Shown: piece by piece, positions 4,783 to 6,596 of the stretch
Numbering within the stretch: the stretch's first letter is position 1
How the letters are laid out: the number at the start of each line of letters is the position of its first letter
Assembly: GCF_044324875.1 (NCBI RefSeq)
Contig: NZ_CP172185.1
DNA from: Escherichia coli
GTDB taxonomy: Bacteria; Pseudomonadota; Gammaproteobacteria; Enterobacterales; Enterobacteriaceae
DNA length: 64,000 nucleotides
Direction: 5' to 3' (one strand)
Translations under genes and position numbers: made by a program
Notes under the pieces: generated by a model
Seen by the model: the letters and a program-made list of their open reading frames with translations, nothing else
What the model was told of the DNA's origin: nothing
The model's database searches: none

Positions 4783-6596
4783 TTAGTTGATCCACACCGT
4801 AGCCGAAATGGCAGGCAAAGCCAGAATCCCGTCTGTCAGTTGCCCATGGCCTTCTTTGCGTTGCCATTGCGCGACATTAAGAAACGGTGACGCGGGGAGC
4901 ACCACTTCACAGGCCTCGCCACGGTTGATTGCCACCAGTACACGTTGCTGATTCAGCACGCGGACAAATACCACCACGTTATCTTCCGCATACAGCACCT
5001 GACAGCCGCCACGACGCAGCGCCTGACTTTTCTTACGCAGCGCAATCATTCGCTGGTACAGCGCGAATAACGCCGTATCCTGCTTTTCCACCTGCCAGGG
5101 GAACGGTTTACGGCAAAACGGATCGTTTTTACCATCCAGTCCCACTTCATCACCGTAATAAATGCACGGTACACCAGGCCAGGTGAACAGCCAGACCACC
5201 GCCAGCGGCAGGCGCGCAATATCCCGACCGAGCAGCGTTTTAAATCGCGCAGTATCGTGGCTATCGAGCTGATTAAACATACGTAATTGTTGTTGATGAG
5301 AAAGCCCTGCGCGGTAATTATCCATCCAGGCCATACAGGTTTGGGCGTCAATGTGCTGCGGATCGTAAGAGATATCGGTATTGGCGAGAAATCCCCACAA
5401 CGGGAAGGTAAAGCCGCGATAGTTCATGGCGGCATCTTCCACATCGGCCTGTAACCATTGCCGTGCATCGCCAAAATGTTCGCCGACAATATACGCTTCC
5501 GGCTGTGTTTCTTTCGCCGCTTCGGTGATCCCAGCAACGTGCTGCATATTATTGCGCGCCCCACCCGCCTCCCCAGCATATGCACCACATCCAGCCGCCA
5601 GCCGTCCATACTCCACGGCGCTTTCAGCCAGTGGCGGACAATACTGTCTTCCCCGCGATAAATTTCATTCACCAGACTTTCCGACTGATAATCCAGCTTC
5701 GGCAAGCTGGCATAGCCAAGCCAGTCGAGCGCCGTGCCATCATCACTAAACGAGTACCAGTCGCGCCAGGGCGATTCGGGGTTGTGACAAGCTCCCCCCG
5801 TGCCACGATTGTGCCTGTCAAACCAGGCATGGGAATCGCCACTGTGGTTAAACACGCCATCCAGCACCAGCCGCATTCCCAGCTGCTGCGTATTGTGGCG
5901 TAAGCGCAGCAACGCCCCATCACCGCCAAACTGCGGATCGACATGGCGATAATCCTCGGTATCGTATTTATGTACGCTGGGAGCTTTAAACACCGGATTA
6001 AGATACAGCGCCGTCACGCCAAGTTTTTTCAGATACGGCAGTTTTTCGCTGATACCGTCCAGATCGCCGCCATAGAACGTTGATCCGCCCGCCTGCGCCG
6101 TGACCGGTTCATCCCAGTCACGCAATATGATCTCTTGTCCGGCTGCGTGATGGTAATAAACATGATCCTGTTCAGCTTCACGAGAAAGACTACGGGCGAA
6201 ACGATCAGGGAAGATCTGATAAAAAATCTGATCCGCAGCCCATTGTGGGCCGATATCCGGTACATCGACGGCAAACTGCTCCAGTCGTGCTGGCGGCATT
6301 CGGCTGAAGCCCTGCGGTGTAAACCAACGCTGGCGATCGTGCCACAGCAATTTGAAACTATAACGCCGCCGAGGTTGCCCGCTGGAGAGATCGATCGCCG
6401 CCCGCCATGCGGTGACGCCAAGCTGCGGCTGACTGCGCTGCTTATGCATCGGTACTGACGTTTCTTCGTTGTCGTGTTCTGTACGCAGCATAATGCGCTG
6501 CGGTGGGTCTTCGCCCGTCAGCCACAGTGTAATGAGCAGTTGATCTTTGCTTTGTTTAACAAATGGGGGCACCGGCAGGTGCCATGCATTTAACAT
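4783..6596 (-). pseudogene. malZ: maltodextrin glucosidase, apparently disrupted by a -1 frameshift in a G-run (or a sequencing error)
   Basis: Two overlapping minus-strand ORFs (5424..6599 and 4783..5616) together read as MalZ; frame switches at [15 protein letters not shown] near 5565-5572, where the minus strand reads CTGGGGAGG. Confidence 0.6.

Follow-up and report, generated by a model that had tools for sequence, protein, structure and literature searches.

The malZ gene (maltodextrin glucosidase) of the Escherichia coli DNA analysed here, a stretch of 64,000 nucleotides referred to below as the window, is split into two reading frames by the lack of one G in a run that has five Gs in intact alleles. 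Judged from sequence comparisons, the missing G is probably an under-called homopolymer in this assembly's consensus, and the strain would truly carry an intact malZ encoding 605 aa. The same deletion is a genuine, rare natural allele in other lineages of E. coli. The finding is ordinary, being either such an under-call or a young pseudogene of an allele for which five RefSeq genomes already have a pseudogene annotation.

Reading frame of malZ

The window is E. coli chromosome with the gene layout yajC-tgt-queA-acpH, a 485-aa ORF, malZ-proY-brnQ-phoRB-sbcDC, and further on the mhp and lac genes. The setting of malZ was as usual (proY-malZ-(485-aa ORF)-acpH), its position between proY and acpH being kept. 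The following features of the gene were recognized:

4783-6599, minus strand: malZ (maltodextrin glucosidase, GH13), 1817 nt, frame broken once
5571-5574, minus strand: GGGG run (GGGGG in intact alleles), where one nt is missing, at codons Gly343/Glu344 (605-aa numbering)
5424-6599, minus strand: N-terminal malZ ORF, 391 aa, made up of 343 native and 48 out-of-frame residues
4783-5616, minus strand: C-terminal malZ ORF, 277 codons, in the native downstream frame and native from Glu344 onward

An earlier sequence-only reading of the window had attributed the split of MalZ to the loss of one nt from a G run and had suggested a comparison with malZ of other strains. Alignment to malZ of E. coli 042 and C4 bore this out. 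The gene was 1817 nt long in the window and 1818 nt in the two reference strains, and the alignment contained a single gap, located inside the G run, where the intact alleles have five Gs and the window has four. Apart from this gap, one substitution separated the malZ genes of 042 and the window. As a direct comparison of sequences, this result leaves no role for chance. The minus strand at 5555-5582 reads CATATGCTGGGGAGGCGGGTGGGGCGCG, which occurs only once in the window. The deletion is situated within a very G-rich minus-strand tract at 5558-5574, GGGG(G)AGGCGGGTGGGG, a putative two-tetrad G-quadruplex that might favour polymerase slippage or sequencing miscalls.

Two overlapping minus-strand ORFs had been described, the upstream one ending in ...DVVHMLG followed by 48 out-of-frame residues, and translation of the ORFs gave exactly this arrangement. 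It had also been predicted that one extra G would restore a continuous MalZ. This proved correct, and the repaired protein was equal to the intact MalZ of the clone-mate L029 described below. The length of 604 aa proposed for the repaired ORF was right only for translation from the second ATG, the start used in PDB and UniProt numbering; from the first ATG the protein has 605 aa, as in WP_001305478.1, the RefSeq entry for the MalZ of strain 042. The repaired MalZ aligned to PDB 5BN7/7VT9 over residues 2-605 with a score of about 1420 bits and was near-identical. Both PF02903 (Alpha-amylase_N) and PF00128 (Alpha-amylase) were present in the MalZ of intact relatives.

In Apg, a close homologue, the catalytic triad consists of D336, E373 and D448, and R334, H447, D492 and R496 also belong to the active site (PMC12373829). 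The break in the window falls 7 codons past Asp336 (D337 in the 605-aa numbering) and upstream of Glu373 and Asp448. The N-terminal ORF contains the Alpha-amylase_N domain, the first part of the catalytic barrel and R334/D336, and the C-terminal ORF carries E373, H447 and D448. As the window is written, the Asp-Glu-Asp triad is not found in one polypeptide, D336 being in the N-terminal fragment and E373/D448 in the C-terminal fragment. Taken at face value, the sequence predicts that neither MalZ fragment could be an active enzyme, because the triad is divided between the fragments and the barrel is complete in neither. If the sequence is correct, the malZ of the window would be a disrupted copy and not a functional member of the family. 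A C-terminal product of 214 aa is the outcome of gene calling in equivalent genomes with four Gs (G4), and would correspond to 4783-5427 here. MalZ reportedly removes glucose from maltodextrins at their reducing end until maltose remains, and growth on maltose or maltodextrins is said not to depend on it. Loss of MalZ would be nearly neutral.

Clone-mates, near relatives and the neighbours of malZ

Clone-mates of the window were located by an exact-protein look-up of AcpH P36L. This replacement results from a C to T change at window position 2641 (acpH codon 36), which is derived and confined to the window and its clone-mates; it was found in 5 contigs of the whole protein collection, one of which was longer than 1 Mb. 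The clone-mate L029 (GCA_049006665.1, contig DBGYFX010000009.1) was identical to window 1-13115 with zero substitutions over 13,115 bp, the only exception being that its G run has five Gs. The same exception was the only one in L030, a contig of the Logan assembly ERR14764776, which matched window 1-9225 with zero substitutions over 9,225 bp. L029 and L030 were independently assembled and may be different isolates and not the same culture. With five Gs (G5) in both, the malZ lesion is not common to the independently sequenced members of the clone.

Near relatives gave the same result at the G run. GCA_050232825.1 differed from window 1-26504 (26.5 kb) by 2 SNPs and by the G run, which is G5. 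GCA_044690745.1 differed from window 33912-56443 by 3 SNPs and one base in an A run, and it lacked the IS2 copy found there in the window. Polarisation of these SNPs placed three derived states on the branch of the window, namely 2641 T (AcpH P36L), 9800 A and 35874 T; the remaining two SNPs were private to GCA_044690745.1. The 2641 T state was common to both clone-mates, and 9800 A was also present in L029. That the clone-mates share the real changes of the branch and do not share the malZ deletion favours an error in the assembly. Over 37469-56443 the window had no derived SNP relative to L017, and yet it carried the derived deletion in the A run.

The malZ deletion was absent from every near relative examined. 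The repaired 605-aa MalZ allele was recorded in 257 blocks of the protein collection, in which the 391-aa and 390-aa N-terminal fragments of the window had no exact match. The out-of-frame tail, used as a protein query, returned only four tiny unrelated frameshift fragments. Thus, the malZ deletion appears to be private to this assembly. The best 25-kb matches to the window among the RefSeq complete E. coli genomes (n=5,426) were 98.8-98.9% identical, and the absence of the source genome from this set was counted in favour of an error.

Compared with strain 042, window 1-49304 had a mosaic identity typical of recombination blocks, the count of differences per kb being 0-2 in the segments 5-9 kb and 25-42 kb and as high as 75 in those at 3-5, 15-18 and 42-46 kb. 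Upstream of the window, between yajD and secF, the clone-mate contigs contained a ParE/ParD toxin-antitoxin pair (L029 3651-4167), which the annotated C4 region lacks at this place.

Three further features of the window concern neighbouring or more distant genes:

3137-4594, minus strand: low-GC (32-37%) 485-aa ORF between acpH and malZ, with no NCBIfam, PADLOC or recorded Pfam match
36139-37468: IS2-family element within an autotransporter gene, with a target duplication of about 5-6 bp
44567-45238, plus strand: PIG-L family deacetylase gene, a full 223-aa ORF that is likewise full in several relatives

The 485-aa ORF is present in strain 042 and in the lineage of the window, and alleles of 473, 485 and 489 aa occur elsewhere. 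K-12-like genomes lack it, and the gap between malZ and acpH is 4 bp there. The sequence-only reading had considered it notable that a broken gene stood directly beside the inserted ORF. This view was not sustained, since malZ is intact (605 aa) beside the ORF in all assemblies shown that carry this 485-aa ORF in identical form, and since five RefSeq genomes with a G4 run do not have the ORF. A link between the malZ lesion and the inserted ORF was therefore rejected. The autotransporter gene that is interrupted by IS2 in the window is intact (968-995 aa) in relatives. In the annotations of strains 042 and CB6837 the PIG-L deacetylase gene appears as a truncated pseudogene.

Homopolymer runs in the window and in other genomes

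When the whole 64 kb was compared with 042, C4 and CB6837, few indels were found, most of them being intergenic or in genes with an existing pseudogene annotation. Two indels, and no others, disrupt coding sequences that are otherwise intact. One is the malZ deletion, and the other is the following:

46455-46458 (gene about 46422-47002), plus strand: AAAAA to AAAA deletion in a 193-aa LbH/hexapeptide acetyltransferase gene, seen in alignments

The A-run deletion shifts the frame of the acetyltransferase gene, which is located downstream of yaiP, at codon 12, and lies 41 kb from the malZ lesion. Five As were present in 11/11 relatives examined, and the A4 state had no full-length identical match in the 3,937 complete E. 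coli genomes that carry the locus. No record matched the 146-aa remnant of the acetyltransferase in a look-up aimed at the A run of the clone-mates, a result that is uninformative because the choice of start codon by the gene caller is decisive. The T3 run at 1228, in contrast, proved to be a common natural polymorphism. Homopolymers of 6-8 nt, including a G6 run within malZ, were intact in 64/64 cases over the 48.9 kb that could be set against near-identical relatives. Expressed by original run length, 2 of about 149 runs of 5 nt were affected and none of the 64 longer runs.

The malZ G run has an apparently private single-base change in homopolymer length, as an assembly error would produce. 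With respect to private changes in the rest of the window, there was one further deletion (A5 to A4), both testable derived SNPs were common to the clone-mates, and the 64 longer runs were correct. The contig of the window spans the 1.3-kb IS2 copy at the site where the short-read contig of the clone-mate breaks, pointing to a long-read or finished assembly. By coordinate arithmetic, the end of the L029 contig maps to about 36133, beside the IS2 junction at 36139; on this basis the IS2 insertion seems to be real and is probably common to the clone.

The focal G run is demonstrably miscalled by at least one technology. At least 6 Logan assemblies, all belonging to one series of runs (ERR10498049 to ERR10499481), contained the identical G4 call, and 4/6 contigs of that series had additional homopolymer under-calls (G6 to G5, T6 to T4, A7 to A6, C5 to C4). 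The G6 run of malZ, intact in the window, was miscalled in such error-prone assemblies. C-terminal products of 277 aa and 214 aa, which arise from a broken gene only, were recorded mainly from the same run series. These fragments were seen only in short, error-ridden or contig-edge contigs, and none was found in a clone-mate or a large contig.

Among 5,424 complete RefSeq E. coli genomes, a 2001-base query taken from the window spanned 2002 bases in every top hit. An 81-nt query over the site, GGGG included, had an exact match in 5/5,305 genomes, a count that is a lower bound, as any SNP in the flanks hides a match. The five genomes were ST2350, SCU-308, MIN14, SC475 and SC492, and PGAP labels malZ as 'frameshifted' in 5/5. 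The inserted 485-aa ORF was absent from all of them. Their malZ genes were 38-55 substitutions away from that of the window and differed by up to 22 among themselves, and represent at least 3 malZ haplotypes other than that of the window. The 6-kb surroundings of the five were 12-55 SNPs apart and had no other indel, only SC475 and SC492 being the same. Furthermore, the 391-aa product of the SC475/ST2350-type allele was also present in SRR13316587 and ERR8282811, which are independent and otherwise indel-free read assemblies.

Shortening by one G was also seen in the G6 run at malZ nt 801-806, in 5/5,382 genomes. The idea of a special mutational hotspot at the focal run was rejected, as this other run in malZ has lost a base equally often (five genomes in each case). 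No genome (0/5,305) carried the focal run in its +1 form (G6). A literature search for malZ frameshifts or pseudogenes yielded nothing specific.

Alternative explanations and comparison with known alleles

A homopolymer under-call is the preferred explanation because of the pattern of the differences, the second homopolymer deletion nearby and the exact reproduction of the miscall in error-prone data. It is further favoured by the private nature of the deletion, by the lack of private SNPs among the differences found and by the fact that both changes are losses of a base. The sequence-only reading had offered real inactivation or a homopolymer error as the alternatives; this was the right pair, and the five Gs of the clone-mates make the evidence lean to error. 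A real and very recent replication-slippage mutation in the isolate or stock, giving a young malZ pseudogene with no further decay, is the less likely of the two. Sequencing technologies that drop bases in 5-mers usually go wrong in longer runs before they do so in these, and the correct length of all 64 longer runs compared counts against an error. A genuine private mutation is made plausible by the reality of G4 elsewhere, on at least three other malZ haplotypes in five RefSeq genomes and in two clean read assemblies, combined with the dispensability of malZ. Other natural lesions of the gene are also known, for example in L039, where the focal run is G5 and yet the malZ product is truncated to 369 aa, and the IS2 insertion in the autotransporter gene is consistent with a lineage in which gene loss is under way. 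These points have to be set against the absence of the deletion from all near relatives examined and from two clone-mates that are free of substitutions over 13.1 kb and 9.2 kb. In E. coli with functional mismatch repair, about one spontaneous mutation in ten is an indel. For natural divergence, two homopolymer deletions unaccompanied by any SNP that is demonstrably private would be an unusual ratio. A degraded, Shigella-like genome was judged unlikely, as the 64 kb contain only one IS element and the contigs of relatives are 100-480 kb long.

It is very improbable that the run acts as a functional switch, either as a phase-variable contingency tract or through -1 ribosomal slippage on CUG-GGG-AGG that restores the frame. 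In the slippage variant, which shares in this low probability, tRNA-Gly would re-pair one base back, the next codon AGG being rare. The sequence does allow the tRNA that decodes GGG to re-pair perfectly after a shift of one base backwards, and ...LGEAGG... would then be recovered without change; the same deletion also recurs on several haplotypes. However, the recurrence is at background rate, the malZ G6 run being shortened as often, and the frameshift is not preserved in relatives. Programmed ribosomal frameshifting was rejected because malZ is a single ORF, in its intact form, in >99.9% of genomes and because the downstream mRNA structure is not unusual (z = -0.11). Phase variation was rejected on the length of the run, which at 5 nt is far shorter than known contingency tracts, on the rarity of the -1 form and on the lack of any +1 form. 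It is hardly to be expected, either, that G4 is real here and that the tract GGGGGAGGCGGGTGGGG is a recurrent slippage site which silences malZ in scattered lineages, with low-level -1 rescue at G-GGG-AGG. If this were true, MalZ dosage would be tunable, and hence also induction of the mal regulon via maltotriose turnover. The sequences compared appear to lend this last proposal no positive support apart from the background-level recurrence of the deletion.

If the missing G is an under-call, the result is a quality flag only. In that case the assembly probably holds around a hundred under-calls of this kind in homopolymers, and gene loss should not be deduced from its other genes labelled 'frameshifted'. 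If the deletion is real, the strain has recently lost a sugar-trimming enzyme that it can do without. The biological weight is small under either reading.

The malZ of the window can be compared with three known types of sequence. E. coli MalZ, as represented by PDB 5BN7 and 7VT9 and by WP_001305478.1, is encoded at the same locus, and a single substitution sets the 042 gene apart from that of the window, whose frame, however, lacks one G and breaks after Gly343. The contigs built from error-prone reads resemble the window in having a private -1 change within a 5-nt run, and the window contains a second such deletion 41 kb away. In contrast to these contigs, the window has a much cleaner profile, with losses confined to 2 of about 149 5-nt runs and 0/64 longer runs. 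The G4 pseudogenes of RefSeq are identical to the window over the 81 nt around the site and have the same architecture of a 391-aa N-terminal fragment and a C-terminal fragment, whereas they differ from it in haplotype (38-55 substitutions) and in the absence of the 485-aa ORF. The deletion of the SC475/ST2350 type is upheld by clean, independent read assemblies, whereas that of the window is contradicted by its own clone-mates.
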